Positions 30,383-47,211 of a stretch of 64,000 bases of DNA are shown one piece after another. The notes below the pieces were generated by a model. That model did no database searches. It saw only the letters and a program-made list of their open reading frames with translations, and was not told the DNA's origin. The translations under genes and the position numbers were made by a program. The first letter of the stretch is position 1; each line of letters begins with the position of its first letter. Origin of the DNA: an uncultured Verrucomicrobiae bacterium (lineage in GTDB: Bacteria > Verrucomicrobiota > Verrucomicrobiia > Chthoniobacterales > JAFAMB01); contig CAWEXO010000005.1 of assembly GCA_963813025.1 (NCBI GenBank), positions 283,840 to 347,839 on the forward strand, in the 5' to 3' direction.

Positions 30383-30457
30383 ATGAATTACGACCTTTGT
30401 CTGTTGAATGATGTTGAATCCTGCTAGGGACGGTGGGATTCGGTTGAAGGTGGTTTG

Positions 30458-32448: not shown

Positions 32449-32559
32449 CTCGATCGGATGACTCTGCAAATTTGCATCTTGATTCTCCGATGACTCAGCG
32501 AAGGAATATTCCTAACACTTTCATAAGAGGATATAGGACTATAAATACCAAAGGGCAGT

Positions 32560-32890
32560 ATTGTGCCATCCAGAACCAACAAGGTTCGACGATACGTTAT
32601 CAGTTTTGCCAGCCTTTCGCCCTTCTCCCACGCCGTTCCTAACTTTGGATCTGGATCACCAAACGAAGTGAGAGCAGCCTCAAGAAATTCATCCGCGGAT
32701 GAAGCCCCCGCCACTGGTTCCTTGTCTGTAGAAGGACCAACCAAAAACAAGCTCTGCAGAACGATAATGTTTTAGCGGCCATCCGGCGGAGCCAATGATT
32801 AACGAGTGTGGACTTCCTGACCCCGGCCCAGGCAACGATTGTAACGATGTTATACGTATGAAAGAATCTCTCCTCGGGCACGAAGAAGCG
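32560..32890 (-). pseudogene. Fragment of a STAND/NB-ARC-like P-loop ATPase
   Basis: IVAWAGV.KSTLVNHWL, VFGWSFYRQG and RTLLVLDG across three frames. Confidence 0.6.
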
Positions 32891-33307
32891 TGTCGGAGAT
32901 GGCGCATTCTCGAATCGTGGACAAGTCGCGAGAAGCTAATCCTTCCTCCATTTTTTCAAGCTGAGAGGCCCGGAGGTCGCGAACATGATGTTCGGTTCGA
33001 CCAAGGCCTTTGGTACAAGTTCACTAAGCCTTGGTGTGCAGGCTATACGGTCGATGCAAGCCACGATCAGATTTGCATGCTTCCCGCAACCCCGCTCCAA
33101 TACCTACTAAGATGGCGGATCGCCAACAAGGAACTCGGGGACAACGTCCGGTTAATGGGTATCGCAAAATCGAACGCGGGATGCAGGCTTGTGATTTCTC
33201 AGCCCGATATTGTGGGTGAGGAGCCTTCGTGGGAGCAGGTCGACCACCTATTCACAGCCGAATACGGCATGAATCGGTCCGATTATCTGAGCAGCCTAAC
33301 CATCTGA
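32795..33307 (+). CDS. Polyvalent-protein-kinase-like domain protein (probably partial)
   Basis: GGREHDV...K.TK...ATPLQYL.RW..AN...GD.V...G...VISQP. Confidence 0.55.
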   Translation: MINECGLPDPGPGNDCNDVIRMKESLLGHEEACRRWRILESWTSREKLILPPFFQAERPGGREHDVRFDQGLWYKFTKPWCAGYTVDASHDQICMLPATPLQYLLRWRIANKELGDNVRLMGIAKSNAGCRLVISQPDIVGEEPSWEQVDHLFTAEYGMNRSDYLSSLTI

Positions 33308-33482
33308 AAATCTGAAAGGGATAATCGGTGCCTACTTCTGCCCTCCTGGCTTCTTCCTCGGCCTGCCTTTGGGCCATCCGCCCAGCTTGCCGATACGGGA
33401 CATTTCTTTGGGATCTTTCTTTTTAGCTTGGCTGCGAACACTGCCAAGCTGCCTAGCGACCTCGCGCCGCACCGGCGTTTGC

Positions 33483-33992
33483 TCAGCCCCGAGAAAGCAA
33501 CTCGAAGCTCAGGGCATAATTGTAAAGCTTAAAGCAGCGTTTGGGAGAATCCCGCATTAATCCCAGTGCCATATTACATGGATGGCACAGAAGGGAACGC
33601 ACCCCGTTTGTTGCATGGCAATGATCAGTTACCGGTTTGAGCTTGTCGGTAAACTTGTCACTGCAGCTATGCACCCACATGGGGCTTAACACCTTTGTGC
33701 TAGTCCCTGTACCGGGACCTGCCCAGCCTTGCATTACAAATGAAGCCTGAACAGTCATGCCCGCCTTTACAGGAAAGGTTCGTCTAAATAATCCTTCCGG
33801 ATCTGCGAGGCTTAATTCCAAGGTGTATGCATGAGTGTCGTCCGAGAACGATTCTTTGTAGCAGAGGTTAAGCAGATGATTTGTTACCAGTGCCGTCCAG
33901 TCATTTCCCGCAACAGCGATAGACAAAGACACCTTCCGTGCTGGCTGGGCCAGCGTTCCGATGATTGAGTCGGTTAAACTAGGTGCAGCCAT
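33483..33992 (-). pseudogene. Truncated phage baseplate hub (P2 gpD-like) fused to an endonuclease VII fragment
   Basis: Follows the tape measure; G.D.T...L..L.Y.E......LEL.L.D..G pattern, then abruptly DHCH....R.LLC..CN.ALG. Confidence 0.6.
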
Positions 33993-33998
33993 GCTCAG

Positions 33999-36113
33999 CT
34001 AGACAACCGCTTCAGACGCCATCCCCCACTTATGGTGTCTACTAAGATAATCGGAAAAAGTTTGTATATGTTCAGTCAAAACCCGATGAACCCCGGAACT
34101 GTCCATTGCGCTGACCACAGGTGCATAACGAATGTGCACTTGCGTGCCTTTAAATATGTCTTCGTTCGACGGATTCCCACTGCCGGTTGTGTCCTTCCAG
34201 GTATGGTATTGGTTATCCTTGTCACTCTTATAGCGGTCGCCGGGCTTAATTCCGTAATGCCTGATCGCATAATCGGGCTTCATCGCTGCGTCGCCAGTTT
34301 GCAAGCTGTATTGCTTGCCCAGAATATGACCGATGCCGTTGAACGAGTCCTTGTCGTAGTACGCCGATCCCTTTGGATCAATTGCGGGACCGTATTCGGT
34401 AAAGTCAGAAGTGCTTCCGTGCGCCTGAAGCCCTTGACCTGGAACATAACCGTTGCCCTGACCGCGACCCTGAGGAAGCGCGTCCCGAAGCTGCTGCATG
34501 CTATTAGTTAATTGATCAACCGTGTCCTTTTGCCGCTGTTCCGCGTCAATTAGACTTTGTTTAGCATTCTGAATGTCAGCGTCATTTGCGCCAGCGTTTA
34601 TCAAAGAATTGAGTTTGTCTTGCGCGTCACGAATCTGTTGCGATTGTACAAACGGAGGCGCACTGGCGTTCTCTGGCGCTTCTGGTCCGTGCACCTTTCC
34701 GGAATACTTGTCCCAGTCTTCCCAGAACTTTTTTATGTCATGCGATTTAAAGTCCGCATAAAGTTCTGTGATCGCTTTTAGTGTAGTAAACGCTTCAACA
34801 AAAAAGTCTTTCATCCCTTGCCATGAAGCCTTGGCTAAATCCTGAACTAAACTAGACGTTACCAACTTAGACATTTCGGCCAGAACGTCCGTCATGTTCT
34901 TGACAATGGTCCGCACCGCCCCGACGCCAGTGTCATTTAACGCAAGCACGTTACCTTGGTTAGGAATTTCGACGGTCGTAAAAAACGAATTGACGTACTT
35001 GGTAAAGCTACGGATGGACCCCTGAAATGCGTCAATGAACGGCTTGAACTTGCCAAAAATTTCTGTGGACGGCAGGGTTGTTAGGACCGAAAGCACAGAC
35101 TTGGACATTTGCCTGAAATGACCCATCCAGGAAGTAGCTTGGTTCCACATGTCATTGTTAACCGCAAAATCCGCAGCGACAGCGGCCCAGTCATTGATTA
35201 CTTCACCAAAATTTGCCTGGAATTTATGCCAGACATCGAGGAACGAAGTCTCTAAGCCGACCATCGTCTTAGAGAAGTTTAGCATCCCATCGTGGAATAT
35301 TCCGCCCGAATCGGTCATTTGCTTGACCATCTGCATGACCACATCAGCAGTGACCTTGCCCTGCTTTTGCATCTTGGCCAGTTCCTCTGGGCCTTTCGCC
35401 CCTAGAATCTGCGCTAGGGTTTTCTCATACGGAATTCCTAAATCCTTTAACTCGCGGCCTTCCTGGCCAGTCATTCTTCCGCCGGCTATAATCTTACCAA
35501 ACGCCAGTGCTGCCCTCTCCATGGCTTCAGCCCCGCCACCAACACCCGCCACGATGTCGCCAGAGCGTTTCGTCAGCCATTCGGCCATGTTGGCATCAGC
35601 CCCTGCTGCAACGTATCGTTTGACGGTCTGTTGCAAATCAGTGGCCTGGAATGGCGACAGAATGGCCGTTGCTTGTTGCCGTTCCATAATAGCATTAGCC
35701 AATCCTTGATCGCCAAGAATGTTTCCCAGACCTTTAGACATTAACTCGCGCTTGGCCGCCAGCTCGCTGGCTTGGTGCCCAAATTCTATTAACTTTTCTC
35801 CGATCCTCTCCGCAACCCCCAGCGCTCTCTCGAACCCGGACGCGAGTAAATCACCGACCGCGACACCGCCGGCTATCTCTCCGATCCGCCGCATGGAGGC
35901 GCCAAGTTGTTGCGACATGGATTGCGTGACCCGGATTCTGGCATTCAGCTGTTGAACAGCAGCCGCATCGCCGTAAATAGCTTTTTCATTCTTTTTCCAC
36001 TCCTGTGATAATTTCCGAATGTACTCAGCACCCCTTGCCATGGCTGCGACCACGGACGGATCAATGTGACCAGTCAGTAGGATCTGAGTATCAAGAACTT
36101 TCGAATTTGCCAT
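33999..36113 (-). CDS. Phage tape measure protein
   Basis: Ala/Gly-rich helical protein; SPF...DL...; ALAFGKI.A.G..TGQE.REL..GIP; G..FHDGM...SKT..GL tape-measure core. Confidence 0.85.
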   Translation of the reverse strand: MANSKVLDTQILLTGHIDPSVVAAMARGAEYIRKLSQEWKKNEKAIYGDAAAVQQLNARIRVTQSMSQQLGASMRRIGEIAGGVAVGDLLASGFERALGVAERIGEKLIEFGHQASELAAKRELMSKGLGNILGDQGLANAIMERQQATAILSPFQATDLQQTVKRYVAAGADANMAEWLTKRSGDIVAGVGGGAEAMERAALAFGKIIAGGRMTGQEGRELKDLGIPYEKTLAQILGAKGPEELAKMQKQGKVTADVVMQMVKQMTDSGGIFHDGMLNFSKTMVGLETSFLDVWHKFQANFGEVINDWAAVAADFAVNNDMWNQATSWMGHFRQMSKSVLSVLTTLPSTEIFGKFKPFIDAFQGSIRSFTKYVNSFFTTVEIPNQGNVLALNDTGVGAVRTIVKNMTDVLAEMSKLVTSSLVQDLAKASWQGMKDFFVEAFTTLKAITELYADFKSHDIKKFWEDWDKYSGKVHGPEAPENASAPPFVQSQQIRDAQDKLNSLINAGANDADIQNAKQSLIDAEQRQKDTVDQLTNSMQQLRDALPQGRGQGNGYVPGQGLQAHGSTSDFTEYGPAIDPKGSAYYDKDSFNGIGHILGKQYSLQTGDAAMKPDYAIRHYGIKPGDRYKSDKDNQYHTWKDTTGSGNPSNEDIFKGTQVHIRYAPVVSAMDSSGVHRVLTEHIQTFSDYLSRHHKWGMASEAVV

Positions 36114-36116
36114 AAC

Positions 36117-36332
36117 TTAAATTCCGTTCCTAACAATTCGTTTTAGTCGCTTTGACAACTGCATTGTTCTGCGCCGAATGTCCACCGGCCTAAGTGCGCG
36201 AGTGTCTGTCTGCGGATCGTGCAGACTTCGAATCGCTAACCGAATTAGACTATCGACCGTAGCACTTCCACCATCCGGAAAGAGGATAGCATTGCATTGG
36301 TTCGCGCTAAGTCGGTGCATCTTAGTCATCAT
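36117..36332 (-). CDS. Small hypothetical protein upstream of the tape measure
   Basis: Co-oriented and 3 bp from the tape-measure start. Confidence 0.45.
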   Translation of the reverse strand: MMTKMHRLSANQCNAILFPDGGSATVDSLIRLAIRSLHDPQTDTRALRPVDIRRRTMQLSKRLKRIVRNGI

Positions 36333-36530
36333 GTTTAGTTTCTAAGAAAAAGGGAAGCTAGCTGCGAGAAAAAACCAAAGCACAACTAGCTGGTAACACT
36401 AGGTTACTGAAAGATAAGGTTTTCATTCTTATTTTAGGACCCCCCTTCCCGGGGATAGAACCGAAAGGGGAGCTGTGTTGAACATCAACAGTTAATGCCA
36501 ACGTTTCGCCCCGTTGGCTGGGCCCATTTG

Positions 36531-36764
36531 TTACCGTGTGGTTAAATCTAAACTTGTTGTTGAATAAGGGACACCTTCCCTTGTGCGTTTGTACAAACTT
36601 CTAATTTCTTCTTGCGTCAGCCTTTGGTTCCGTTTGACAATGTAAGTTCTGCCCGAACCATGCAAAATTACATCACGCAAAATATAACGCTTCTCTGCAG
36701 CGGTTAATTTGTGGTGATCGCATTTAACCGAAATATCAGCTAAATGTTGTTCAGGAGTTGTCAT
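36531..36764 (-). CDS. Small hypothetical protein downstream of the capsid gene
   Basis: ATG immediately after the capsid stop codon. Confidence 0.5.
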   Translation of the reverse strand: MTTPEQHLADISVKCDHHKLTAAEKRYILRDVILHGSGRTYIVKRNQRLTQEEIRSLYKRTREGVPYSTTSLDLTTR

Positions 36765-36765
36765 G

Positions 36766-37902
36766 TTATTGCGCTGCGCTATCTTCAGACCGCACAACTG
36801 CTGGTCCATAAAGCACTCCGAAGTCACAGAGGACATTGATGTTAACATCTACATCGAACACCGACGTAAATGGATTTACACAAATATCGAAGCCCCACAC
36901 GCCCACGACTACTGAACTTGCGCGCAAAAAAATAGCTTGATGGGTCGATGACAGGTTCTCGGTCGTAATAACAGGATAACCAGCCACCTTGTTATCTTCC
37001 AGCAAGTATCTGGGATAAGTAGCAACCTTTACGGTGGTGGACCATTTGTTCCAGGTGGCGCCGTCTATAAGCCATGCATTTGTGCCATCTTCGACCACGT
37101 TAGCCTGTTTAAGTGCGGCCGGCATGCTAACAAGCTTGGCCCAAGTAGCCGTAGCCCCGAAGGTCACACCTTGATAGTTAAGCTTTGAAAGATCGCTATT
37201 TGAAACACTGTTCTCGGTCATACCTAGCAAGCCGGTAATGGGACTCCCTGTTCCGGTCAAAAAATAGTTGTCCAGCTTGGCACCAATGGACCGCATAATC
37301 TCCCGTCTGATCGCATGCTCAGCGTCAATATTTGACTGAGCCAACAATTGCTTACTGATTCTGGTTTCGATTCCCACGCGTTTAGCGGATAAGCTGAGCG
37401 TACTAAACGTTCCGTCGCCGGCGTCCGCCGTCAACGCTGCGGTTTCGGTCTGCTCCGCCGGGGCAAAGTCTGTTGCCATACGTGGCCAGCTGACTTGACC
37501 GACTAATCCATCCAGGACGGTTGCGCCTGCCGCAATCAAAGCCGAATAAGGTCTTAGTGCTGTGGCCAGATCCTTTCGCACAGTTGTCTGCACCAAATTT
37601 CCGCCAACATTGGCTGTTCCCACGACAAGATCACGAGTTAGAATCTCGGATGGAACCATTAACCCAAGTGCCGGCTGGCCGATTTCGCGGGAGATCCCTT
37701 CAGATACTTCGCATTCGTAGGTGCGCTTGTCCATGAACCCAGGGCCGGCGACAAGGTAGTCGCGCAAGCTGTAGGACCGTTCGCCGAGACTAACAGCAGC
37801 GCTGCTTTGGTAAGGACCGACACTGAATGGATTGCGCCGTTCGGACAACCCCGACAAGGGCAAGGTCACAATGTTAGTTTGGAGAATTTCGTTTTTGGTC
37901 AT
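36766..37902 (-). CDS. Phage major capsid protein (HK97 fold)
   Basis: GGNLV.T, L..GA.VL.GL.G.V..P, ISKQLL.QS, GTG..P.GLL, GYPV. Confidence 0.85.
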   Translation of the reverse strand: MTKNEILQTNIVTLPLSGLSERRNPFSVGPYQSSAAVSLGERSYSLRDYLVAGPGFMDKRTYECEVSEGISREIGQPALGLMVPSEILTRDLVVGTANVGGNLVQTTVRKDLATALRPYSALIAAGATVLDGLVGQVSWPRMATDFAPAEQTETAALTADAGDGTFSTLSLSAKRVGIETRISKQLLAQSNIDAEHAIRREIMRSIGAKLDNYFLTGTGSPITGLLGMTENSVSNSDLSKLNYQGVTFGATATWAKLVSMPAALKQANVVEDGTNAWLIDGATWNKWSTTVKVATYPRYLLEDNKVAGYPVITTENLSSTHQAIFLRASSVVVGVWGFDICVNPFTSVFDVDVNINVLCDFGVLYGPAVVRSEDSAAQ

Positions 37903-38051
37903 AAAATCCGTATTGTTTTAACTTGGTCAGCGTCTTTCATCTTTTTGGCGATGCCTGCGAGTTTCTCATCCCGTCGGTCTTTTTCTAATTGTTCTTGCTG
38001 CCTGGCTAAGGCGAGTAAGTGTTTTTCTCGAGCTTTGGATATTGGTAGCAT
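37899..38051 (-). CDS. 50-aa coiled-coil-like protein coupled to the capsid gene (not in the ORF track)
   Basis: MLPISKAREKHLLALARQQEQLEKDRRDEKLAGIAKKMKDADQVKTIRIL*; stop overlaps the capsid ATG (ATGA). Confidence 0.55.
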   Translation of the reverse strand: MLPISKAREKHLLALARQQEQLEKDRRDEKLAGIAKKMKDADQVKTIRIL

Positions 38052-38055
38052 AAGG

Positions 38056-38253
38056 TTAGGTTATTCCGTAACGTGGTTTGGGGTCATTTCTGACCAATTT
38101 GCCGGTTTGCGGGTCTAGGAGATAAATTGCGACCTTCCGGCCATTAGACAAAAGAAGCGCCGCGTCAGCAGGACGTTTTTCAATTGTCCGATAGTGCTTT
38201 TTTTCTAGCTTCGCCGCGCCCCTTCGGGTTGCAAAAGTCATTCTTATAGCCAC
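38056..38253 (-). CDS. Small hypothetical protein
   Basis: Co-oriented, with AAGGA-like spacing to the next gene. Confidence 0.45.
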   Translation of the reverse strand: MAIRMTFATRRGAAKLEKKHYRTIEKRPADAALLLSNGRKVAIYLLDPQTGKLVRNDPKPRYGIT

Positions 38254-38510
38254 AAGGATAATTACCGCGCATTTCGGGGCAGGTGCGGCAAGGATGGACG
38301 CGGGTGCAGCATGGTTGCAACCTCTACAAGCTACTGGATTGTTTCGGCAGCCTTCAATAGCACACGGGACAAGAAGTCGCCCGAGTGTAGGAAGTGCAAG
38401 ATCCGAGCGAGCAGCTACGCGAAAACTACGAAAAAAACAGGGAATCCATGCTTGTCCGCAAGCGCGAGTACCGAAAGAAAGAACGTCAAGCCAAACAGCT
38501 CGCCCTTACC

Positions 38511-39101
38511 TCAGTCCGGATCAATGTCCGCCAACAGAGCCTCGCCCGTCGCTGCTTCCAGTTGAAGAATTTCGTGATTCTCTATCTCGCGGGCTATTTC
38601 CCTGATTTCGCCGTGGAGTTGGTGTTGAATTTGACGTTGGCGCAGACCCGCCAGCCATGAAAGATATTGTTCCCTGGCTAAACTAACCTCAAGCGCGGTT
38701 AAGTAGTACTCCTCTGGCAACTCGTCGGTGGTCATGTTATTTCCAGCCAACTCTTTTTCTTACGCTTTTCATTAAACCGCGAATAAAGACTCAAGAATCT
38801 TTGCACAGGATCAGATTCGAGAACTTCAAGTACATCGTTGTCCTTTGGCTTTGGCTTTGGCTTTGGTAACAGGCCGCAGTCCAGCCCGAGGTCCGCGTGG
38901 TTATTTGCCGATGACATAACCCTTGCGCCACTTCTTGACTATCCCCTCAAGCACCGGATCGATACTGGTAGGTTGCAAAGGAAGTTGATGGGTGGACTCA
39001 GCATAAGTCTTTGGCGTCCGGTCTTTTTCCAGTGCCCGCACCTTGCGTTGCAATTCCTGGACCAATTGCTTTAGCTTCAGGATTTCAGATTCGGTATTCA
39101 T
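38511..39101 (-). CDS. Three small overlapping hypothetical ORFs (38511-38750, 38732-38917, 38901-39101)
   Basis: Tightly packed and co-oriented, typical of phage or satellite operons. Confidence 0.45.
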
Positions 39102-39322
39102 GCTGCTGCCATCAGTCTCGCACGCTTGGCTCGGAGCTTAGATCTGTATTTCCGCATATTAGCTGCAGCCCTCGCGTTAAATTCCTTAACACCGTAGCGG
39201 AGTTTATATTCGAGGTGCAGGGCATGCTGGCAATCCCGGCAAATAGTCCTGTCCGAATTAAACGCAGAGAACGGTTTGAGGTGTTGACAGCGGAAACACT
39301 CGTTTAGTAGTTGCCGTTTCAT
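39098..39322 (-). CDS. CxxC...CxxC zinc-ribbon protein
   Basis: CFRC..LKP.SAF....CRDC plus a basic helix. Confidence 0.6.
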   Translation of the reverse strand: MKRQLLNECFRCQHLKPFSAFNSDRTICRDCQHALHLEYKLRYGVKEFNARAAANMRKYRSKLRAKRARLMAAA

Positions 39323-39408
39323 TATCTTAGATAATTACACATAACCGCCTTTGTAATTGGGTTGTCATTCCAGAAAGCGTCACATTGTCACACTCGACAA
39401 TAAAACCA

Positions 39409-39448
39409 GAGTCGCCGACTCGCACTTAAAAAGCCTCAGGAAGGACCC
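39409..39448 (-). other. Lambda-like cos site (cosQ plus cosN-like palindrome)
   Basis: Minus strand: GGGTCCT, 20 nt, then GAGTCGGCGACTC, then TGGTTTT. Confidence 0.6.
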
Positions 39449-39895
39449 GCCAAAATTCTGTTATGGTCCGCCATGAAGGATAAATACAGATACGCAATCC
39501 ACTTCCTTTAAAGTTCCAGCTGCCGAAATGACAGTGGTCACAATAGTCTGCGAAACTGTTGGAACCTACCGACGCCCGGGAAGCTTTGAGAATAAACCTC
39601 GAAGATCTTCTGGCTGGCCCTTTTGCCATGGTCCGTGTAGAACAAATCAGTATTCAAAAGTGGATAGCCCCACAGAGCTATCTAAGACTGCCGAACAAAC
39701 TAAGGTGCGGATCTTTTGGCTGGGCGAATCTCCTGGAATGGGCTGCCGATCGCTTTGCGGTTCCTTGAAGATAAGCAGCGACAGCGGCATCCACTTGGAC
39801 AAACCCGGCAATGCACGAATCGCACGCCAGAACGTATTCGTGCTTTGATAGCGGCACCCGGAAAAGCTTAATGTTCATACTTCAATGGCCCGATG

Positions 39896-40294
39896 TCATC
39901 TCGGCCAGAAACCCTCTAGGAACGATTTTGGGCTATCCTGAACATTTTGTGCTTTGTCGGAACCGCTGATCGGCGTGTCAACGAGGCCTACCCCCTGCTT
40001 GTCCAAGAACGCCCGGATAGCAAAGGAGTATTTGGTGTTCATCGCCCTTCGGCCGACCAGACATTCTTGCAGACGTCTTTGGTTTATGCCGATCGCCTTG
40101 GCCGCGACCGTTTTGCGACCATACTTCTGTAAACACCAGAGACGAAGCTTTTCTAGTGGATTTGCCTCTTCCCCTTTGAGGATATTGCGAATTTGCGAAA
40201 CGGGTACGGTAAATCTGATGGCTATTTCTTCACGGGAGAACCCCTTCCCGGCGAAGTCTAAGCATTGTCTGAGCCGCCTGCCAGCTGTGTTCAT
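39896..40294 (-). CDS. HTH-like DNA-binding protein
   Basis: SREEIA.RF.VP.SQIRNI and AAKAIGINQRRL helix-turn-helix-like segments. Confidence 0.55.
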   Translation of the reverse strand: MNTAGRRLRQCLDFAGKGFSREEIAIRFTVPVSQIRNILKGEEANPLEKLRLWCLQKYGRKTVAAKAIGINQRRLQECLVGRRAMNTKYSFAIRAFLDKQGVGLVDTPISGSDKAQNVQDSPKSFLEGFWPR

Positions 40295-40829
40295 ACCGCG
40301 CCACTTTCGCGGAGCCTCTCGATTTCATTCCGTCCGTCACCAATTGAGCCGCATTCTGTAATTCCAGTTCTTTCGTCGCACGGCTTCTGGCCCTCTCGCC
40401 TTTCAGCGCATTAGCTTCACCCTTAAGTTCTCGTTCTTGTTCGCCCTTCAGTGCATGGATAAGATTCGGCTTACAACCAGACGCAACCAGAGAGAGATTA
40501 AGAAGCTTCCGATGATAAACGTCTTTCAAGTAAAGCCTTTTCTCGATTTCCAGCCTCAACCCGTAGCCGACGCTTTCTAATTCTTCGGTAGTCCAGCGTT
40601 GGAACGTAAGAATCTTGCGCTTCTTCCGGATATACGCATCGGCCAAAAAGCTCGCCCGATCCGCTAGCGTGAATAATGGCTTGTTGCCGAGATATTCGTT
40701 GCACTCTTTACAACAAGGGACTGTCTCGCCGGGTCGGTGGGTTCTGTAGACCGAACTCCAGGAAACCGGAACCACATGATCCCGGCATTGAAAATAGTCT
40801 CCGCAGTAGGTGCAGCATTTCGACCCCAC
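40230..40829 (-). CDS. HNH endonuclease
   Basis: CTYCG...DHVVP...VPCCKECN...G.K. Confidence 0.85.
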   Translation of the reverse strand: MGSKCCTYCGDYFQCRDHVVPVSWSSVYRTHRPGETVPCCKECNEYLGNKPLFTLADRASFLADAYIRKKRKILTFQRWTTEELESVGYGLRLEIEKRLYLKDVYHRKLLNLSLVASGCKPNLIHALKGEQERELKGEANALKGERARSRATKELELQNAAQLVTDGMKSRGSAKVARYEHSWQAAQTMLRLRREGVLP

Positions 40830-41282
40830 CCATTCCAGGGCGTGTCAACCCTGTATTCCTGGGCGGCCGATTTAAGCAACGTTTACGTCCCCAACGTCCC
40901 GGGATACCTGAACAGCGCTAAAAGCCCGCCAGAAACCGTTTAAACGCCAATGAGCCGGCATTGAGGCACCATTAAGCCCGTTGCGTTTCCGACAAGGTGG
41001 TCGCTGCCACTAATTGTTCTGCCATACCGCAAATCTTGGCCATTTTCTGACAATTGCCCCGTACTGAGAAAACTCTTTTGAAAACGATTCTGGTCTGTGA
41101 AAAGGGTCACAAGCTGCGCATAGGACGTTTGGGACGCATGTTTACCGCACCCGCTAGCGCCATGACGGAACTTCTGTCGTAGCATTTCCAGGTTAAAAGG
41201 GCGGGACTGGCACGAGATCAAATGGTCTAGGATTAACCACCTAGATCAAAATGATCTATCTGCTGGTCCCCCAAGACGTCCG

Positions 41283-41489
41283 CTACCCTTCACCCGCAAG
41301 ACCGACTGCAGCATGGCGGGAATGGCCCAAAGCGATTCGCGCAGCCAGCCGCAGAGTCCGATTTTCTTCCCTCAGTGCAATCAGTTTTGGTTCGAAAATT
41401 GAGCGAGCAGTCTGAAGGCCTGCAAATTGACCCTGTAGAAACAGATCCGGCTCCGACTTAGTTTTAAGCTTCATAAGCGATTGTACCAA
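41283..41489 (-). CDS. Small hypothetical protein
   Basis: Co-oriented short ORF. Confidence 0.35.
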   Translation of the reverse strand: MVQSLMKLKTKSEPDLFLQGQFAGLQTARSIFEPKLIALREENRTLRLAARIALGHSRHAAVGLAGEG

Positions 41490-41568
41490 TAAATACTTTT
41501 AGGCCACAAGTGTCAACCGCCCCCCTTAAGGATCAACCGCAAGGAAGGGGGCCAAAAATGGAATCTAT

Positions 41569-41621
41569 TTCCTTTAAACTTCGTAATTCCTTTAAACTTC
41601 GTAATTCCTTTAAACTTCGTA
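41569..41621. repeat. Three tandem 18-bp iterons, candidate replication origin
   Basis: TTCCTTTAAACTTCGTAA x3 (last copy 17/18), in AT-rich DNA just downstream of the primase-helicase. Confidence 0.75.
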
Positions 41622-41822
41622 TTTTTGCGAAATCTTAGATTACTTTCAATTCTGAGAGCCCGAGACCGAGGTACGAGCAGCGTCAGCCCACCATAAGTGG
41701 GGGGTGTGTAATTTATTACACCCCCTGCTGGTACCGTGGGTCTTGTCGTATTGGTATTTAGTTTAGTGTCACTTTTTCTCTAAGGAACTGAAACCTGAAA
41801 CTAAAGCCAAACTTACCTAGAT

Positions 41823-43880
41823 TTATGACATTTTTGACATATTTTTGACATTATTGACAATAGTCATACCCCCTTGCGGAATAGCCAATTCCTTAAGGCC
41901 TTTCGGCGTTAATTGATATTTCTTCTCATCATTCAGATCGACCTGTTTTCCCTTACATTTCTTTAAAAGTCGGTTAAAACGGGTTGGGTTTATCCCCACA
42001 ATTTCGGCCTGCGCTTTCCATTTCTTGTGGAATAACGGACCTTTTTGAAGCAGCGATAATATATCCCTCGGCCCCCATTCAGACCTGTTCCCGGAGCCCG
42101 CCTCGGGTATCAGCCCGGACAGCCGGCGGTAAAGCGGATATTCCCAAATTGCTGCAAAGGGTGCTGGCGTGGCATCTTCCCGCATCCCGCTAAATCGAAT
42201 ATCTATTACGCGATCCTCTCCGTACTGATTGTTGATTGCTGCGTCTGTACATTTCAAGAATGAGGCAACAACATCGGGATCTCTGGACCATACAGCAGAC
42301 CCCGACTGAATATCATTAGAGAGCCGCCCCGCCTGCTCACCCTTTGTCGAGTGCCCCACGATCAATGTTGCCGCGCCTGTCTGAGCAGAAATACGCTCTA
42401 CATGGTTGCAAAAGTCGGTGACATCCCTTGCCGAGTTGTCGTCCCTGTCTCCGAGGCATTTATAAGCCGGATCGACTATGACGAATTTATATGGGCGGGT
42501 TTTGAGTCGTCGCAAAATCTTATCGACCATTACCTTTATATCTGCGGGTTTCCCCCGAAGATTCCAGAAATCTACGTCATGGCCAGAGACGGGATTCAGG
42601 CTCATTGCGTCGCAAATATCCAGCACGCGATTATTCATCGTGTTATGCTTCAACTCAAAATTGATATACAACACAGGTGCACGATAAGTCTCATGTCCTA
42701 GCCAAGGCCGCCCGGAGCCCACGCAAAGCGCTAAATGAATCATCAGCCACGTTTTAAATAGCTTCGACTGGCTTGAAATGTTCATTTTAGACCCTCCTCG
42801 CAAAAGTCCTTCGATCAGGTATGGGTCTAACGCTTCCCGTGCGGACAAGAATGACCTTGGCGATTCAATGTCCGGAAGCCCGTCATCCGGGTTCGCGGCC
42901 TCCCACTCCTGCCAGTTCGCTGCTCCAATGCTCCATGACAACAGATGCTGCTTCCTTGGCCCACGCATAACGCCGGGGATTCTGGAAAGCCGGGATGGGT
43001 TTTTGTTGGCTACATCGATACTTAACTTGCCCAGGTAAGCGTAAACAACCTGCCGACGCTGCTTAAATTCATCTGCGTCCTTGGCTGCAACCTTGACCAG
43101 TGCATGAATGCTCTTCCCGCCGCTGTCGTATATTGCGACTATGGGCAGTCTAGTGGCCTTGAGATTGGCGAATTGAACCTTCTTCTCTTCTGGCCATAGG
43201 TCCGGGCGATTAAGCGTTCCGTCCAGCTCGACGAGTAAGTGCCTGAAGTCCGCAACGTTTGCGTCCGCCCTTGCCGAATTAAGGTCCTTTAATGGGTTGA
43301 TACAAAACCAACCACCATCGCTCGCGCCATCAAGAACCTTCTGGCAATACGCCTGAACCTTGGGGTCTGTATCCAGCAGTGCTATGGAAGCCTTATAATC
43401 TTCGGTCGGCTTGCCGCCGCTGCCGGGAAACGAGAGACAAAAAATGTCGTCAGGCTTGAAGATTCGTCGCAGAAATTCAATCGGCGCCGTGCCGTCCAGC
43501 TCGTTTGGCAGATCCCCTGAGCAGCTAACTGGCACAAATGGCTTGACCTCGGGGGGCTTGGCCGCTGCGGATGAACCGTTTAGCCTGTAGGTTGCGCCAG
43601 TCCCGCTTCCTCGCATACACGGCTCGCGTTGTTCGCCCCTGAACGCGGAAGCCATTGTTCTATTAGCCTCCGACTCAGACAACCCGTCATTCAGCGCTCG
43701 CTGCAACAAGGCAGCCTCATACTTGTTCCACATCCCGTGATCGCGCACTTGGCAGCACGCAGCGTGCAATTCATTGTTGCGACTTCCCTCGGGAGCGCCA
43801 TTCTCCAAATACCCCATTGTGCGTTCGGGCAACTCGGAGTCAGACAATGACGTGGCTCCGCTGCCTATAATGTGCTTCAT
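41823..43880 (-). CDS. Primase-helicase (PriCT-like, primase-like, AAA_25/RepA-type helicase)
   Basis: EGSRNNEL; LVELD...DSGGKSIHALV; NPSRLSRIPG; SK.FKT, YINFEL, IVDPAYK, H..KG, GS. Confidence 0.85.
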   Translation of the reverse strand: MKHIIGSGATSLSDSELPERTMGYLENGAPEGSRNNELHAACCQVRDHGMWNKYEAALLQRALNDGLSESEANRTMASAFRGEQREPCMRGSGTGATYRLNGSSAAAKPPEVKPFVPVSCSGDLPNELDGTAPIEFLRRIFKPDDIFCLSFPGSGGKPTEDYKASIALLDTDPKVQAYCQKVLDGASDGGWFCINPLKDLNSARADANVADFRHLLVELDGTLNRPDLWPEEKKVQFANLKATRLPIVAIYDSGGKSIHALVKVAAKDADEFKQRRQVVYAYLGKLSIDVANKNPSRLSRIPGVMRGPRKQHLLSWSIGAANWQEWEAANPDDGLPDIESPRSFLSAREALDPYLIEGLLRGGSKMNISSQSKLFKTWLMIHLALCVGSGRPWLGHETYRAPVLYINFELKHNTMNNRVLDICDAMSLNPVSGHDVDFWNLRGKPADIKVMVDKILRRLKTRPYKFVIVDPAYKCLGDRDDNSARDVTDFCNHVERISAQTGAATLIVGHSTKGEQAGRLSNDIQSGSAVWSRDPDVVASFLKCTDAAINNQYGEDRVIDIRFSGMREDATPAPFAAIWEYPLYRRLSGLIPEAGSGNRSEWGPRDILSLLQKGPLFHKKWKAQAEIVGINPTRFNRLLKKCKGKQVDLNDEKKYQLTPKGLKELAIPQGGMTIVNNVKNMSKMS

Positions 43881-43998
43881 GATTTAATTCCAAATTGGTC
43901 AACTGGTTCCGGCTCGCCTGTTTCTGCTCGTTCTAGTGACATGGTTTAGAAAGGTGATGGACTTGTGTCTGCCGATATTCCTTTTTCTATAGAAAATT

Positions 43999-44322
43999 TC
44001 ATATTAATTGATCGAAGTTAAATTCCTTAATTGGTTCAGGCTGCATATTCTTCATATGCGGAAATTTCTTGTTGAGTTGGTAGGTTCTTGCTCTATCGAT
44101 GCATAGCCAGCTATGGTTCCAGTAATAAAGTTGACAATGAAATTTGTGCCTCAGCTTTCTCTCTGGCTTAGCCTCATAAAGCTTGCAACACTCCTTGCAC
44201 CATGACGCCAGACCATCGCGTTTGGTCTTGTTCTTGTACCACTCTCCAACCCCACGAACCTCGCCGCACTTAGGACATTTCTTACTCATTTTTGTGCTCG
44301 TGCTCATACACCTCAGCTGCAT
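43999..44322 (-). CDS. CxxC...CxxC zinc-ribbon protein
   Basis: KKCPKCGE...YKNK..RDGL.SWCKEC. Confidence 0.65.
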   Translation of the reverse strand: MQLRCMSTSTKMSKKCPKCGEVRGVGEWYKNKTKRDGLASWCKECCKLYEAKPERKLRHKFHCQLYYWNHSWLCIDRARTYQLNKKFPHMKNMQPEPIKEFNFDQLI

Positions 44323-44548
44323 AGAATTTCATTCTCTCGACAAGATTTCTGGCCTCCATCGCAAAGCGCCGATCCAACTTGCAACAGGAAATGCACACAT
44401 CCGCGTCATCCTCAGCGTTGAACTCAGCGATGTCGGCAAGCACGCCAAGAATCTCAAGTCGATCGTGGTCGGCGACCGCATCAAATATGGCGTACCAAGC
44501 TTTCTCGTTTTCCGGGATTTCATCGTCGTATTCTTCAGTTATGTTCAT
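44282..44548 (-). CDS. Small acidic hypothetical protein
   Basis: Co-oriented; overlaps the next gene. Confidence 0.5.
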   Translation of the reverse strand: MNITEEYDDEIPENEKAWYAIFDAVADHDRLEILGVLADIAEFNAEDDADVCISCCKLDRRFAMEARNLVERMKFYAAEVYEHEHKNE

Positions 44549-44713
44549 GTGGTTATTTCTAGTTTGGTGCCCGGAAGAATCGGTTAGCCACTCTGGGCTT
44601 GTGGCTTTTGCGCAAGTTGCGCAGAAAATTGTTGCGGACGAAGAAAAAACCTTGACCCGGTCCCAGGAATCTGGTAATTAGAGACTGTTCATTGTTTCTT
44701 GTTTCATTGTTAG

Positions 44714-44748
44714 CCCGGTTAGTTAAAGCTAACCGGGTTTCTTCTTTT
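44714..44748 (+). terminator. Hairpin with T-tract (possible intrinsic terminator)
   Basis: CCCGGTTAG...CTAACCGGG followed by TTTCTTCTTTT. Confidence 0.45.
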
Positions 44749-44755
44749 CAGGTTT

Positions 44756-45151
44756 TTAATTATTTTGCCCTGCCACAAATTCCTGTAATTCCCCCTCAAA
44801 ATGGAACCACTCTCGCCTTTTGTGTACTCGAAGGCGCTGAAACCTTCGATGCATTGCGGATTCGTCCGATTGCGTGCCCCGGACAGCGGTTAGAAACACT
44901 ACGCCGGGATTTGAGGAGACGTGCGCCGCAATGCGTTCCTCCAGTTTTGTGGTCCATCCCACCTTGACCAAATGTCCCGAGCGCAGGAAGTAGACCCAAC
45001 CCGTGGGGCTCGCGGCCTTTTTCGGCTGTGACGCGTTTGTAGCAAAAAACAAATGCTCCACTAGGTCGACAACGCGCTGAACATCGCAGCCGAGAAGATC
45101 AGCGACCTCTTGGGCTGTGGGCTTGGGACCGATGGCGTCAAGCCGGCTCAT
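44756..45151 (-). CDS. T5orf172/GIY-YIG-like protein
   Basis: GWVYF...VKVGWT...R...E..MHRRF...REWF. Confidence 0.8.
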   Translation of the reverse strand: MSRLDAIGPKPTAQEVADLLGCDVQRVVDLVEHLFFATNASQPKKAASPTGWVYFLRSGHLVKVGWTTKLEERIAAHVSSNPGVVFLTAVRGTQSDESAMHRRFQRLRVHKRREWFHFEGELQEFVAGQNN

Positions 45152-45153
45152 GC

Positions 45154-45327
45154 CTATGCCTTCCGAACTCTCTCCCGTAAAAATTCGAGGACGCATTCCT
45201 TAGAAAACAAAAATTGGTTTCCTACTTGGTTCCGTGGGAGTTGTCTGGTGCGAACATAGTATCGAATAGCCTCTTTTGAGACCCCTATAAGCTTTGCGGC
45301 CGCTCTGGTTGTTAGCAATTCTTGCAT
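45154..45327 (-). CDS. Excisionase-like HTH protein
   Basis: LLTTRAAAKLIGVSKEAIRYYVR..QLP..QVG..F.FSK..V.EFL. Confidence 0.8.
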   Translation of the reverse strand: MQELLTTRAAAKLIGVSKEAIRYYVRTRQLPRNQVGNQFLFSKECVLEFLRERVRKA

Positions 45328-45379
45328 AAGTATTTCCCTATAAGTACCCGATCGGGTAACCTTGCTATACGCGGTCGGG

Positions 45380-45680
45380 TCAACCGTGCCTTTCCAACCG
45401 TTTGGCCCATGGCGTGACCCCCTTTGCGGCTTGTTCACGCAACCACGCCTTGCAATGTGCGGGTGTGGTGCGCGTGCCGAACTCGAACGTATAGCCCGCG
45501 TGCTTCCACGCTAGGATCGTGAAGCGGGAGACGCGAAGGGCAGCTGCGAGTTCCCTGTTATTGACAACAACGTTGTCAGCAAACCGTTGCTGAATGACGG
45601 ACGCGGAAGACTTGTCTCCCGCTAGTTTTGGTGTATTAATTTCGGCTTTCTCGGTTTCTACCTGATTGCCGTCAATAACC
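45380..45680 (-). CDS. Second Xis/AlpA-like HTH ORF with no ATG/GTG/TTG start (not in the ORF track)
   Basis: Manual translation ...NNRELAAALRVSRFTILAWKHAGYTFEFGTRTTPAHCKAWLREQAAKGVTPWAKRLERHG*. Confidence 0.55.
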
Positions 45681-45886
45681 TGTCAACAACCTGTCGATAA
45701 CAACCGCAGATCGAACCAATGCCCTGTGCTTAAACTGTGGTTAACTGGGAATAGACCCCAGTATATGGCGTTGGCAAACCCTTATTCAACACTATATGTT
45801 GTGAACCGCAAGGAAAAAATGGGGGAAACCCAAACAAAGCTTACAATTCTTAAATCAGAATGGCACCCAATTTCAACGAGCAAACA

Positions 45887-46939
45887 CTACCGCCGGCTCA
45901 TCATCGCAAAGATTGGGGCAACATCCGCAGCAGTTATCCTTTGGTAAATCTCGTGGACCTGTTGCGATGCATGACTGACGAACCTCCGAGTCATTGCTTC
46001 GGGTACCCCCGCCAGTGCGGCTCGGGTGATAAAGGTTGCCCGCAAACCATGGTGACTAAGATGCTGAAGATTCAAAGTATCCAAAAACTTGCGCCACTGG
46101 ACCGACGGTGGGACCTCGCCTTTCCCCGGGATATCGCACACCGTCGAATGCCGCAGTGCTTTTCGCTTCTCAACGATTGCCTTCAAGATCGGCAAGAATT
46201 CGGGATTGATCGGTTGAGAAAATCCTTTGCGACCTTTTACGATTTCATCGGGATAGTTGATTAGACCTCTGGCGACATCGATTGACCGCAGCGGGACAGC
46301 GCACTGGCGCAAACGCGATGCTTGATAGAGTCCAAACAGAAAGGTTACATGCAACCACCCAAACTCATCTTGGGCTGCAAGCTTCGCACCGACCAGCGCC
46401 ACCTCGTCATCGGTCCACGCTTCCTTGTGCCTCTGCGGTAACCGGCTAAGGTCCAATCCCCTTGCCGGATTATCCCCAGTCACAAATTTCCGCTGCTTTG
46501 CTTCGTCCATGACCATGGCAAAGAACTTGATCTCGTCGATTGCTGTGTTGCGGTCGGCGCCATTGTCCGCACGCCAGCTGAGGTAGCCCAGGACAATCTC
46601 GCGAGTAACCGTGGCCGGAGTCGTGATACCAACTTCGTCAAAATATTCCAGCCATCGAAGCGTATAACGCTTGTAATATTTTGGCGTACACGTTTGCAGG
46701 TGCCCCCACTTTTGGTCGATCCATTGGACAACCCAAGCGGCGAACCCTGACCGCGTGTGCGTGACCGGCTGCCGCTCCATCTCTGCAAGCTTTGTTCGCT
46801 GCGCTTCCAGTTCGGCCTGCTTCCGGTCGCCGATGTTGTCCTGGCGGTAGCCAGAGTTCCGGCTCTTCCACCTGCCCTCCGCGTCTTTATACCGAATCCA
46901 GATAAACGGGCTGTCAGGTTTATTGTAGGTGCTTGCCAT
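45887..46939 (-). CDS. Tyrosine recombinase (integrase)
   Basis: Catalytic-type R (ASRL), K (VKG), HGLR, H (VSH), Y (EIY); adjacent to att. Confidence 0.9.
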   Translation of the reverse strand: MASTYNKPDSPFIWIRYKDAEGRWKSRNSGYRQDNIGDRKQAELEAQRTKLAEMERQPVTHTRSGFAAWVVQWIDQKWGHLQTCTPKYYKRYTLRWLEYFDEVGITTPATVTREIVLGYLSWRADNGADRNTAIDEIKFFAMVMDEAKQRKFVTGDNPARGLDLSRLPQRHKEAWTDDEVALVGAKLAAQDEFGWLHVTFLFGLYQASRLRQCAVPLRSIDVARGLINYPDEIVKGRKGFSQPINPEFLPILKAIVEKRKALRHSTVCDIPGKGEVPPSVQWRKFLDTLNLQHLSHHGLRATFITRAALAGVPEAMTRRFVSHASQQVHEIYQRITAADVAPIFAMMSRR

Positions 46940-47014
46940 GGTCCGACAATAGACCACTTTCGGCGGCGCCTTGTCACGATCTTTGTTACGATTTCTGCGG
47001 TCCCCGAGGAGAAA

Positions 47015-47060
47015 CTGCGTCCGCCGGGATTTGAACCCGGAACCTCTGGCTCCGGAGGCC
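47015..47060 (-). mobile_element. att site: 3' half of tRNA-Arg(CCG), junction between islands 1 and 2
   Basis: Reverse complement GGC CTCCGGA GCC AGAGGTT CCGGG TTCAAAT CCCGG CGGACGCA; no D-arm or 5' half upstream. Confidence 0.88.
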
Positions 47061-47211
47061 GTAGAGTCATCTCTATAAGTGGTTTGATTTTAACTACTTA
47101 TAACGTTAGCAAAATCGATTAAAGCACTTTTAGAGCACTTTTTGCTTAATCTTCCTTAAATATCCCGAAGGCTCGCTCTCCGGCACAGGGCGCTCTGCGA
47201 CAAAACTTGTA

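Follow-up and report, generated by a model that had tools for sequence, protein, structure and literature searches.

A candidate PICI-like satellite with its own capsid homologue and tape measure protein in an uncultured Verrucomicrobiae bacterium

Can an element that carries genes for a major capsid protein and a tape measure protein (TMP), but for no other intact particle part, be a phage satellite, or is it what is left of a prophage? The question is raised by a locus in the genome of an uncultured Verrucomicrobiae bacterium (G000), for which a sequence-only reading had proposed a satellite that remodels both the head and the tail of a contractile-tailed cos phage. All coordinates given here refer to the window, the whole stretch of 64,000 nt that was analysed. 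The explanation favoured below, with a probability of roughly 0.65, is that of a cos-packaged, PICI-like satellite of a myovirus with a lambda-type head and a P2-type tail, which contributes two substitute virion proteins: a Ccm-like capsid protein and a PLE-like TMP. As the element has its own capsid and TMP and no other particle parts, it most likely depends on a helper phage, whose head and tail it would alter.

Extent and gene content

The gene order proposed earlier was borne out by Pfam and PHROG profile matches, and from the integrase to the hub-like ORF every gene lies on the minus strand in one co-oriented block (Table 1). The extent of about 13.5 kb had to be revised: the element measures some 16.7 kb (30338-47061), extending 3 kb beyond the earlier limit to a tRNA-Arg 3' end of host type, and a tRNA-Arg(CCG) 3' end is thus located at each border. 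Over 38 nt, the far att site is 95 % identical to the intact tRNA in G001, a genome of the same genus whose genes are syntenic with window positions 20000-30180. ARAGORN reported no tRNAs in the window, Rfam only a tRNA-like 3' fragment below threshold, and a search of G000 gave no intact tRNA-Arg(CCG). Close to the far att site, positions 30422-30482 resemble, at 82 %, a segment near the far end of C4, one of two sibling elements (C4 and C13) in G000. This copy is partly broken and decaying, and the truncated right end and the att sites, only 82 % alike, suggest that it may be defective.

Table 1 Features of the element and their positions in the window
Feature	Position	Strand	Evidence or remark
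Far att site, host-type 3' end of tRNA-Arg(CCG)	30338..30382	-	Repeat of int-side copy, 82 % over 45 nt
Cargo or decayed end	30400..33400		Cupin 31183-31785 (+), SnoaL-like piece 31955-32266 (+), unknown ORF 32795-33307 (+)
Broken gpD-type baseplate hub	33483..33992	-	aa 1-113 hub N-terminus, aa 110-159 endonuclease VII C-terminus
TMP, 704 aa, intact	33999..36113	-	PF20155 E 1e-17
71-aa ORF immediately before TMP	36117..36332	-	Kept in C4 (frameshifted) and C13
77-aa ORF, probable start 36764	36531..36764	-	Homologue in C13
Stand-alone HK97-fold major capsid homologue, 378 aa	36766..37902	-	PF05065 E 2e-20, phrog_617 E 6e-34
Six small ORFs	37899-38051, 38056-38253, 38511-38750, 38732-38917, 38901-39101, 39098-39322	-	ORF calls
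Lambda-type cos-like site	39409..39448	-	cosQ-like heptamer, spacer, cosN-like core
66-aa ORF (C13 homologue) and 132-aa HTH protein	39678..40294	-	Sequence comparison, profile scan
HNH endonuclease	40230..40829	-	PF14279 E 4e-4 (under cut-off), phrog_36777 E 3e-19
68-aa ORF	41283..41489	-	90 % identical in C4, dN/dS 0.09
Three tandem 18-nt iterons, putative origin	41566..41624		AT-rich stretch after primase
Primase-helicase (prim-pol and AAA_25), 685 aa, frame intact	41823..43880	-	phrog_2597 E 3e-90
Endonuclease-VII-like zinc-finger ORF (107 aa) and unknown 88-aa ORF	43999..44548	-	PHROG scan
T5orf172/MUG113 domain protein, HTH-like N-terminus	44756..45196	-	Domain by profile, HTH motif by eye
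Xis/AlpA-MerR-like HTH_17 regulator	45154..45438	-	PF12728 E 7e-10, phrog_66 E 1e-5
Tyrosine integrase, 356 aa	45887..46957	-	phrog_1 E 3e-23; R, HxxR, H, Y motifs present
Int-side att, tRNA-Arg(CCG) 3' half from anticodon arm on	47006..47061	-	5' half absent; junction with further island

Two Xis-like HTH proteins had been proposed. Only one is confirmed by its profile matches, to which a MerR hit (E 1e-4, under the cut-off of that profile) can be added; the second turned out to be the N-terminus of the T5orf172 ORF, where the motif was seen by eye. A single copy of the iteron is present in C4.

The cos-like site ranks 18th among 8,835,974 genome positions and second inside the element. It is plausible as a cos site but unproven. 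It is kept in C4, where the spacer has changed and a 1-nt insertion is present; it also folds as a short hairpin ahead of a T-rich run and is readable as a terminator hairpin. The same subtype is located about 100 nt ahead of a terS gene in G006; the site differs from those preceding resident terS genes. No cosQ-like heptamer was seen in six of the eight other reduced loci scanned, and an IMG/VR scan with the pattern gave three matches, none of which reads as a cos site preceding a terminase. Promoter and terminator scans returned 16 and 23 sites, respectively, against shuffle means of 12.3 and 16.6, and were left out of the argument apart from this hairpin reading. A terS/terL pair 6 kb away (53094-55677) was rejected as part of the element because it falls outside the int-side att, is accompanied by a cos-like site of a different type and resembles four loci elsewhere in G000.

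Virion genes present and missing

The capsid homologue has a short N-terminus and lacks a protease domain, a stand-alone form also present in P0002 and P0003 (376-381 aa; 67 % and 47 % identity). In a capsid tree, all 10 capsids from reduced contexts fell outside a 24-row clade (SH-aLRT 91) that contains all seven phage capsids and all eight protease-fused capsids, a split which may in part be artefactual since this was a quick tree with long branches. GenBank phages hold capsid relatives at 26-32 % identity among the best 15 of 39 matches but no TMP match, and scans of IMG/VR gave no relative with the capsid, a capsid alignment or either of two TMP alignments.

The TMP is full-length, its C-terminal domain and terminal motif are conserved, and compared with the C4 copy it has a dN/dS of 0.073 at a dS of 0.62 (residues 1-482). 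With 704 aa, against 681 and 743 aa in phages, it is about as long as a phage TMP and would therefore be expected to change tail length little. Residues ~568-658 are modelled as a double-psi beta-barrel, possibly a cell-wall lytic domain of the 3D/MltA type. The model of this tip has a pLDDT of 65 and gives weak fold matches, all with Z below 5 (YuiC, Z 4.7, rmsd 3.3, 64 aligned; MltA, Z 4.5). Asp587, Asp641 and Asp652 are invariant; conserved aspartates characterise domains of the 3D/MltA type. The tip had no match in Pfam, in PDB sequences or, at E <= 0.001, in Foldseek; a region search for the domain scored none, and the Atlas returned unnamed or TMP-fragment clusters only. Single-sequence folding of the C-terminus reached a pLDDT of 35.

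The neighbouring gpD-like hub stands only as a hub-type N-terminus: about 113 aa, the N-terminal third of a gene of ~300 aa, is fused in frame to an endonuclease VII fragment (PF02945 E 5e-11), and a full-length hub of the gpD type (~300 aa plus C-part, or 350-450 aa) is absent. Relatives found by phmmer measure 272-451 aa, one of them scoring above the PF05954 cut-off, and the family profile matches R2 pyocin chain 6u5h_C (E 3e-8). A profile of the full-length relatives matched 1 of 43 family genomes, the match being the fragment described here, and no intact hub was seen in reduced elements. Hub and TMP were probably captured together; here the hub is broken by a deletion and is unlikely to work, and the baseplate remodelling by the hub that had been envisaged is not supported.

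The 21 ORFs taken as genes leave gaps of at most 453 nt, in agreement with the earlier statement that portal, protease, terminase, sheath and tube do not fit between them. The element was searched by tblastn with 35 structural and packaging proteins of phages, among which the hub gave the one match at E <= 0.05; portal, protease, terminase, Z, U, sheath, tube, chaperone, X and wedge left no remnant detectable with these queries. The small terminase was sought with four terS queries and had no match in the element, the one trace by profile being a weak phrog_57 hit (E 0.004) of the Xis-like HTH protein; none of 39 further ORFs of the window (other frames, cargo stretch) matched a PHROG, and the portal, terminase, sheath and tube of a complete prophage were not found between the att sites. 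P4-like Psu, Delta, Sid or Ash had no Pfam or PHROG match among the scanned ORFs. Two phage tail chaperones used as queries had no match, and the two small ORFs preceding the TMP match no family; the one next to the TMP does not match phage tail chaperones and also lacks a usable Atlas match. A very distant chaperone is possible.

Recurrence of the reduced layout and alternative explanations

The reduced layout is not unique to this locus. Relatives occupy two further tRNA genes of G000, namely C4 at tRNA-Pro (20.9 kb, 45-nt repeat) and C13 at tRNA-Arg(TCT) (10.2 kb, 29-nt repeat), and their dN/dS values indicate purifying selection. The element is colinear with C4 over five blocks, and the two small genes preceding the TMP, or their DNA, are common to all three copies. 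Four of the six small ORFs between 37899 and 39322 have C4 homologues (three compared, dN/dS 0.09-0.19), and all four small ORFs compared with C4 overall fell within this range. The capsid is absent from both siblings, and their integrases are unrelated to that of the element (at best 25-29 % over ~80 aa).

Among TMP relatives with known context, the closest (95 % and 42 % identity) are encoded in reduced elements, not in complete prophages, which favours a satellite over a one-off deletion; those of full-tail phages reach 31 % and 24 %. The earlier reading had named, as grounds for its rejection, closest homologues confined to complete prophages and a reduced order unique to this genome; neither was observed. 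In an 11-row TMP tree, a branch with 99 % bootstrap separates four reduced-context TMPs from two of full-tail phages. A capsid gene adjoining a TMP gene was also found in one metagenome contig and in two att-bounded islands of about 9.5 kb; eight of the 10 stand-alone-capsid loci have the capsid without a TMP. Both islands, L080 (9.7 kb) and L082 (9.5 kb), are complete and flanked by direct repeats of 45 and 28 nt, respectively. Capsid and TMP are separated by 653 nt here, 1955 nt in L028, 1351 nt in L080 and 1187 nt in L082, compared with 4537 nt in phage L119 and 8573-12887 nt in four prophages. The TMPs of these two islands fall into another PHROG than that of the element, so that they show convergence rather than a single family.

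Some phages carry orthologues of the TMP, hub and capsid genes within full contractile-tail operons, and they likely mark the helper type. They are myoviruses with a lambda-type head and a P2-type tail (IMG/VR L117, L118 and L119; prophages L086-L095), which share with the element the capsid family phrog_617, an orthologous TMP and a gpD-type hub. Unlike the element, they encode a protease-capsid fusion, connectors, sheath, tube, chaperone, X, spike and wedge, and the prophages also a portal and a terminase. No helper phage was found in G000, an 80 %-complete genome.

That an L119-like prophage lost most of its structural genes, the selection signal stemming from its life as a phage, is unlikely, though full-tail phages do have an orthologous TMP, a split hub and a capsid of this family, arranged in the same relative order. 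The hub was cut by a deletion, and the siblings are damaged too, C4 by an IS insertion and frameshifts and C13 by reduction of its TMP to a fragment. Related loci, moreover, retain differing structural subsets: Z, TMP and hub-C in G032, terS and TMP in G006, protease and TMP in G104. Damage to all three G000 copies, this variation, the lack of a detectable chaperone, the missing helper, the phage-like length of the TMP and the weaknesses of the cos-like site also weigh against a satellite. Decay would, however, require at least four clean deletions without remnant (packaging genes with the protease half of the capsid fusion; connector to chaperone; X; hub onward). It also has to contend with the short capsid form common to P0002 and P0003, with gap-filling genes under purifying selection in copies at three different tRNAs, and with att-bounded islands of such build (9.5-11 kb) in other families.

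It is rather improbable that the locus is a (once) mobile anti-phage island in which capsid homologue, TMP and hub fragment mainly poison phage assembly, giving tailless or misshapen particles, instead of serving as parts of its own particle. Interference with tail assembly is a published defence theme (PMC11364771; Rta, PMC12987554; accessible text), the capsid homologues are on long branches, and neither a chaperone nor a protease for maturing the element's own parts was found. The hub piece ends near the ends of two short database relatives (113 and 120 aa), but these may be contig-edge fragments; the TMP has kept its full length and conserved C-terminal end, as in a working tail part, and the cos-like site and full replication module point toward transfer. 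A false join of unrelated pieces is conceivable in a metagenome-assembled genome whose contig ends with the window, yet it is very improbable given the colinearity with C4, the flank syntenic with G001 and the same order in an independent contig.

Known satellites and the proposed role of the element

Statements on published systems follow the accessible parts of the sources cited. The view that no described satellite carries a TMP and a hub could not be upheld: PLE11 of Vibrio cholerae encodes both, together with a chaperone, and builds chimeric tails with helper tube, sheath and baseplate (PMC12987554), and EPIPs have been reported with capsid and TMP (PMC12822802). Both pairings are therefore already known in satellites. 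The hub is absent from some PLEs while all have the tail chaperone, and PLEs use the capsid protein of the helper (PMC12987554). The element, in contrast, has its own capsid homologue, a broken hub, no detectable chaperone, a primase-helicase replicon and a cos-like site. EPIPs of Mycolicibacterium aichiense (~11 kb) resemble it in having a major capsid protein and a TMP and, as described, no other tail proteins or holin, although the preprint is ambiguous and also states that capsid proteins are lacking (PMC12822802). They have a serine integrase, TerS, scaffold, head-tail adaptor and stopper (PMC12822802); none of these was found in the element, which has a tyrosine integrase, a hub fragment and a contractile-tail helper type.

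With the cos-type PICIs SaPIbov5 (Ccm), EcCICFT073 and PmCI172, the element shares an integrase, regulator, primase-replicase and origin, a cos site (cos-like here) without its own terminase, and one HK97-fold capsid homologue (PMC8569155, PMC6092414). The distance to the helper's capsid is also alike (24 % identity for Ccm, 27 % for the element to L119); these PICIs are described without tail genes, and the EcCICFT073 capsid gene is dispensable for interference (PMC8569155, PMC6092414). The cf-PICIs likewise have a PICI-like left half, a capsid gene, HNH and sometimes a TMP (PMC10085698; Extended Data Fig. 10 legend, PMC12987554). They also encode TerL, portal, protease and head-tail joining genes (PMC10085698); TerL, portal, protease, adaptor and connector of this type were not found in the element. 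Of the features in the PICI model of SatelliteFinder, the element has an integrase with a tRNA att site and, by Pfam and PHROG profiles, an AlpA/MerR/Stl-type regulator, a primase-replicase and a capsid morphogenesis gene. The small terminase is absent, as it is from cos-type PICIs, and TMP and hub fragment are tail genes, which the model forbids (PMC10085698); such elements are therefore probably filed as prophage debris.

As a satellite, the element would excise upon helper infection or induction and replicate from the iteron origin, after which the helper terminase would cut its cos-like site. Its capsid protein, with no protease domain and a shortened scaffold arm, would co-assemble with helper capsid protein and portal into heads of reduced size, large enough for 10-17 kb but not for the helper genome, in the manner of Ccm. 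Its TMP would replace that of the helper in a tail for which the helper supplies tube, sheath, chaperone and baseplate, as happens with PLEs, and would bring its own putative cell-wall lytic tip domain. The remodelling of head and tail is proposed from sequence. A wider, tentative idea is that of an undescribed satellite lineage in which two proteins, a capsid subunit lacking a protease and a TMP carrying its own wall-lytic tip, would be enough to rebuild the head and the tail of a contractile-tailed cos phage. Its hosts would hold complementary portal-less islands (terminase-only, capsid and terminase, capsid and TMP) that may exchange parts in trans in the course of a single helper infection.

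Limits are set by the uncultured host, by the damage to this copy and by the precedents for each of the two gene pairings. That satellites manipulate tails was demonstrated only recently, in PLEs, and what they gain from it lacks an explanation. The element would be an independent case in a different replicon and host group, in which capsid and TMP substitution are combined with a cos-like site and the sequences allow the type of donor or helper phage to be named. As its TMP is not shorter than that of the phages, the gain may be an escape from tail-targeting interference, or another entry enzyme, rather than a change in tail length.

Anatomy and boundaries of the element

The window is the final 64 kb of contig C5 of genome G000, an assembly of 4.4 Mb that is 80 % complete. 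The co-oriented gene block described in the sequence-only reading is present: every gene lies on the minus strand, the G+C content (0.45-0.55) is below that of the host DNA on its left, and profile matches were obtained for an integrase, T5orf172, HNH, a primase-helicase of 685 aa, an HK97-fold capsid protein of 378 aa and a tape measure protein (TMP) of 704 aa. After the primase come three tandem repeats of 18 nt. Of the two Xis-like HTH genes that had been proposed, one was backed by a profile match (HTH_17) and was the only one identified.

The extent of the element had to be revised. A 45-nt repeat (82 %) was found, both copies of which are tRNA-Arg(CCG) 3' ends. The same-genus genome G001 has genes syntenic with positions 20000-30180 of the window and an intact tRNA-Arg(CCG) 4 kb further on, the 3' end of which is 95 % identical to the far repeat copy over 38 nt. 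This synteny and tRNA match set the element at approximately 16.7 kb, 3 kb longer than the span first assigned to it. The integrase-side tRNA copy lacks its 5' half, a feature consistent with islands arranged in tandem. A terS/terL pair, not accompanied by a portal, lies in the adjoining island together with a toxin-antitoxin-like pair and an IS630. Three separate endonuclease-VII-type homing nuclease pieces, plus one HNH, are present in this small element, and such genes may mark exchange boundaries.

Positions of features in the window and in loci fetched from G000, related genomes and phages
Feature	Position (strand)	Remarks
365-aa protein, then SMI1/KNR4 immunity-type gene	28108-29792 (+)	Common to G001; may be a toxin-immunity pair (near the element, not in it)
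Far repeat copy	30338-30382	
Integrase-side repeat copy	47007-47051	
Hub ORF	33483-33992 (-)	
TMP	33999-36113 (-)	
Capsid	36766-37902 (-)	
Endonuclease-VII-type pieces	33483-33665, 39098-39322, 43999-44322	
cos-like site	39448 (-)	
Gp49-like toxin and HTH antitoxin-like pair	47263-47989 (+)	With SecB-like gene, possibly a toxin-antitoxin-chaperone set (47263-49773) split by IS630
IS630	47968-49138	Five near-identical copies elsewhere in G000
SecB-like gene	49249-49773 (+)	
Small protein	51325-51891 (-)	N-terminal 50 aa also found after terL in other terminase islands, as well as at C8 330 kb and in phage L120
Lambda-type terS and terL	53094-55784 (-)	Intact; cos-like site upstream; no portal
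Duplicated segment	55740-56500	97.5 % copy on C6 (12100-12854), including cos-like site before terS
tRNA-Leu island (G000 C5 90-100 kb)	L007:1917-11867	Integrase, helicase, lambda gpE-type capsid, head decoration, terS, terL; no portal, no protease; a further incomplete head set
Terminase islands	L004:14153-19835, L005:11252-18128	Near-identical; family-A DNA polymerase upstream of terS/terL
466-aa protein of C4 sibling	L001:9257-10657	Lies between primase and cos-like site; start resembles a signal peptide; no PHROG match
G006 locus	L018:13721-16958	cos-like site, terS (41 % to phage L120), 94-aa ORF, 746-aa TMP (common part mainly C-terminal barrel domain); capsid-less variant
G104 island at tRNA-Ala	L041:112-11085	10.9 kb, att-bounded; ClpP-type head protease, 998-aa TMP; no capsid match
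Lone-capsid islands (10-16 kb)	L053:3950-19583, L102:5951-15979, L081:4125-12426	No TMP, portal or TerL match; L053 and L102 bounded by 54- and 46-nt repeats
Split hub genes of phage loci	L117:1765-3026, L119:9959-11225	~300 and 113-144 aa

Recurrence of the reduced layout

Two siblings of the element were found in G000: one on contig C4 at tRNA-Pro (20.9 kb, 45-nt repeat) and one on C13 at tRNA-Arg(TCT) (10.2 kb, 29-nt repeat). Their integrases are unrelated to that of the element. The element and C4 have five blocks in common at 72-90 %, which take in the origin region, the cos-like site, small ORFs, the TMP and the DNA ahead of it; C4 has no capsid gene and is interrupted by IS elements, and C13 retains part of the TMP and the two genes that precede it. 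Compared with C4, dN/dS was 0.073 (at dS 0.62) for TMP residues 1-482 and 0.09-0.19 in all four small ORFs compared.

A single metagenome scan gave two loci: L028, in which a capsid end is followed by small ORFs (1.95 kb) and then by a TMP 42 % identical to that of the element, and L029, which is the same DNA as genome G032. Within the order, 18 of 401 genomes gave a match to the capsid profile, and the loci of all 17 besides G000 were fetched. Seven are protease-capsid fusions among prophage-type genes, with a portal confirmed in six; the other ten are stand-alone capsids or pieces without a match to the phage query set, four of them on contigs below 12 kb and one in a poor assembly. Only two of these ten, L080 (9.7 kb) and L082 (9.5 kb), have a TMP; both are complete int-HTH-helicase-capsid-TMP islands flanked by direct repeats, and they represent convergence because their TMPs belong to another PHROG. 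The TMP profile matched 12 of the 401 genomes, among them G000, G006 (terS and TMP), G032 (Z, TMP and hub C-part) and G104 (protease and TMP); the remaining eight, judged by eye only, comprise three prophage-type and five reduced or unclear cases. Reduced relatives of the element occupy two further tRNA genes of G000, and the capsid-TMP neighbourhood occurs again in L028, L080 and L082.

Structural genes, phage relatives and the cos-like site

The largest gap among the 21 ORFs counted as genes in the element is 453 nt, and when 35 structural and packaging proteins of related phages and islands were compared with it (permissive E <= 0.05), the hub alone matched, in agreement with the earlier claim that no portal, protease, terminase, sheath or tube gene lies between those named. 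PHROG searches with 39 further window ORFs (other frames or cargo) gave no matches. Profile searches of G000 detected neither of two portal families (PF05136, PF04860) nor a PF04984 sheath; in 43 family genomes, the PF05136 portal was found in none and a gpA-type TerL in five.

The hub ORF is, as judged from sequence similarity, correctly named as gpD-type: its residues 1-99 gave 17 matches, mostly 272-451 aa long, one of 12 scanned relatives passes the PF05954 cut-off with three more matching weakly, and the family profile matches R2 pyocin chain 6u5h_C. A working hub is unlikely in this copy. Homology ends near residue 113, after which an endonuclease VII C-terminus follows in frame, and no whole hub was seen in any reduced element examined. 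C4 has no hub gene, G032 has only a separate gene for the C-part (the second of the split pair) after its TMP, and a profile of full-length relatives matched one of 43 family genomes, namely the element's own fragment. With only a fragment of ~113 residues here, the proposal that the hub remodels the baseplate is unsupported. Short hub relatives P0064, P0068 and P0075 (93-120 aa) stop near the same cut point and may be fragments from contig edges.

In IMG/VR, the hub profile matched three loci. L117 and L118 carry sheath, tube-position and chaperone-position genes, TMP, X, split hub, spike and wedge genes, and their 681-aa TMP is 31 % identical to that of the element over 720 columns. L119 has, in addition, Z and U-like genes and a protease-capsid fusion of 734 aa (27 % to the element capsid); its 743-aa TMP is at 24 %. 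These loci represent a contractile-tailed phage type that is the source of the capsid, TMP and hub genes of the element and could also act as its helper. A TMP tree of 11 rows split four reduced-context and three context-unknown proteins from two phage and two context-unknown ones (99 %). In a quick capsid tree of 38 rows, 10 of 10 reduced-context proteins, six of them on long branches, fell outside a 24-row clade that includes all phage and fused capsids (SH-aLRT 91). The element capsid is without protease and has ~43 residues ahead of the conserved motif, versus ~88 in the database relatives P0007 and P0008. A nine-row model of TMP residues 556-704 (pLDDT 65) resembles double-psi beta-barrels; the top three structure matches include YuiC (Z 4.7) and MltA (Z 4.5). 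Because every Z is below 5, this gives only a hint of a wall-lytic domain at the TMP tip. The TMP of L118 has the same tip domain.

A conserved core and a cosQ-like heptamer lie ahead of each of four terS genes in G000 islands; we take these sites to resemble lambda cos. Scored with a matrix built from these four, the element site ranks 18th of 8,835,974 positions and second inside the element. C4 keeps heptamer and core, with an altered spacer and a 1-nt insertion in the core. The subtype of the element and C4, a pattern derived after viewing these and the G006 sites, also occurs in G006, ~100 nt ahead of terS. The heptamer is missing from six of eight other reduced loci scanned, and the element site can alternatively be read as a hairpin with a T run; it is likely to be a cos site. 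terL loci similar to that of the window lie at C5 97 kb, C8 175 kb, C13 624 kb and C1 46 kb (broken).

Comparison with known satellites and interpretation

No described satellite with both TMP and hub had been known to the sequence-only reading. Such satellites are on record: in PLE11, which forms chimeric tails, the TMP is encoded together with a chaperone and a hub, the hub is not universal among PLEs, and TMPs occur in some cf-PICIs (PMC12987554). Other sources list capsid, TMP, TerS and head-tail genes for EPIPs (PMC12822802), a SatelliteFinder PICI model with five core parts and tail genes forbidden (PMC10085698), lone capsid homologues with cos sites in EcCICFT073 and PmCI172 (PMC6092414), Ccm, which shares 24 % identity with the helper capsid, occupies the pentamers and is unable to build shells by itself (PMC8569155), marine VEIMEs without capsid genes whose hosts include Verrucomicrobia (PMC9618062), and portal-less small HK97 genomes (PMC13669383). 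Its tail genes place the element outside the PICIs as modelled, and it is neither a cf-PICI nor an EPIP. A literature search covering few subscription papers found none on this satellite lineage or on capsid, TMP and hub without terminase.

With its anatomy, lack of other virion genes, recurrence and selection directly observed, the element is read, at a probability of about 0.65, as a cos-type PICI-like satellite that is packaged by a helper, with mixed small heads and a substitute TMP. The helper would trigger excision and replication, and its terminase would package the element DNA at the cos-like site; the capsid would give smaller mixed heads, as Ccm does, and the TMP would replace that of the helper, as in PLEs. 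Several points count against this reading: each of the three copies in G000 is damaged, the structural subset differs among relatives, no chaperone was seen, and the TMP is close in length to phage TMPs. That the element is instead a decayed prophage is unlikely, and that it serves as a decoy defence is less probable again; an artefact of assembly is hardly credible. The recurrence of the reduced layout supports the earlier suggestion of a satellite-like design. This design is real and recurring, and the present copy is partly decayed; by analogy with known satellites, the element would work as a cos-type PICI with PLE-like tail substitution.
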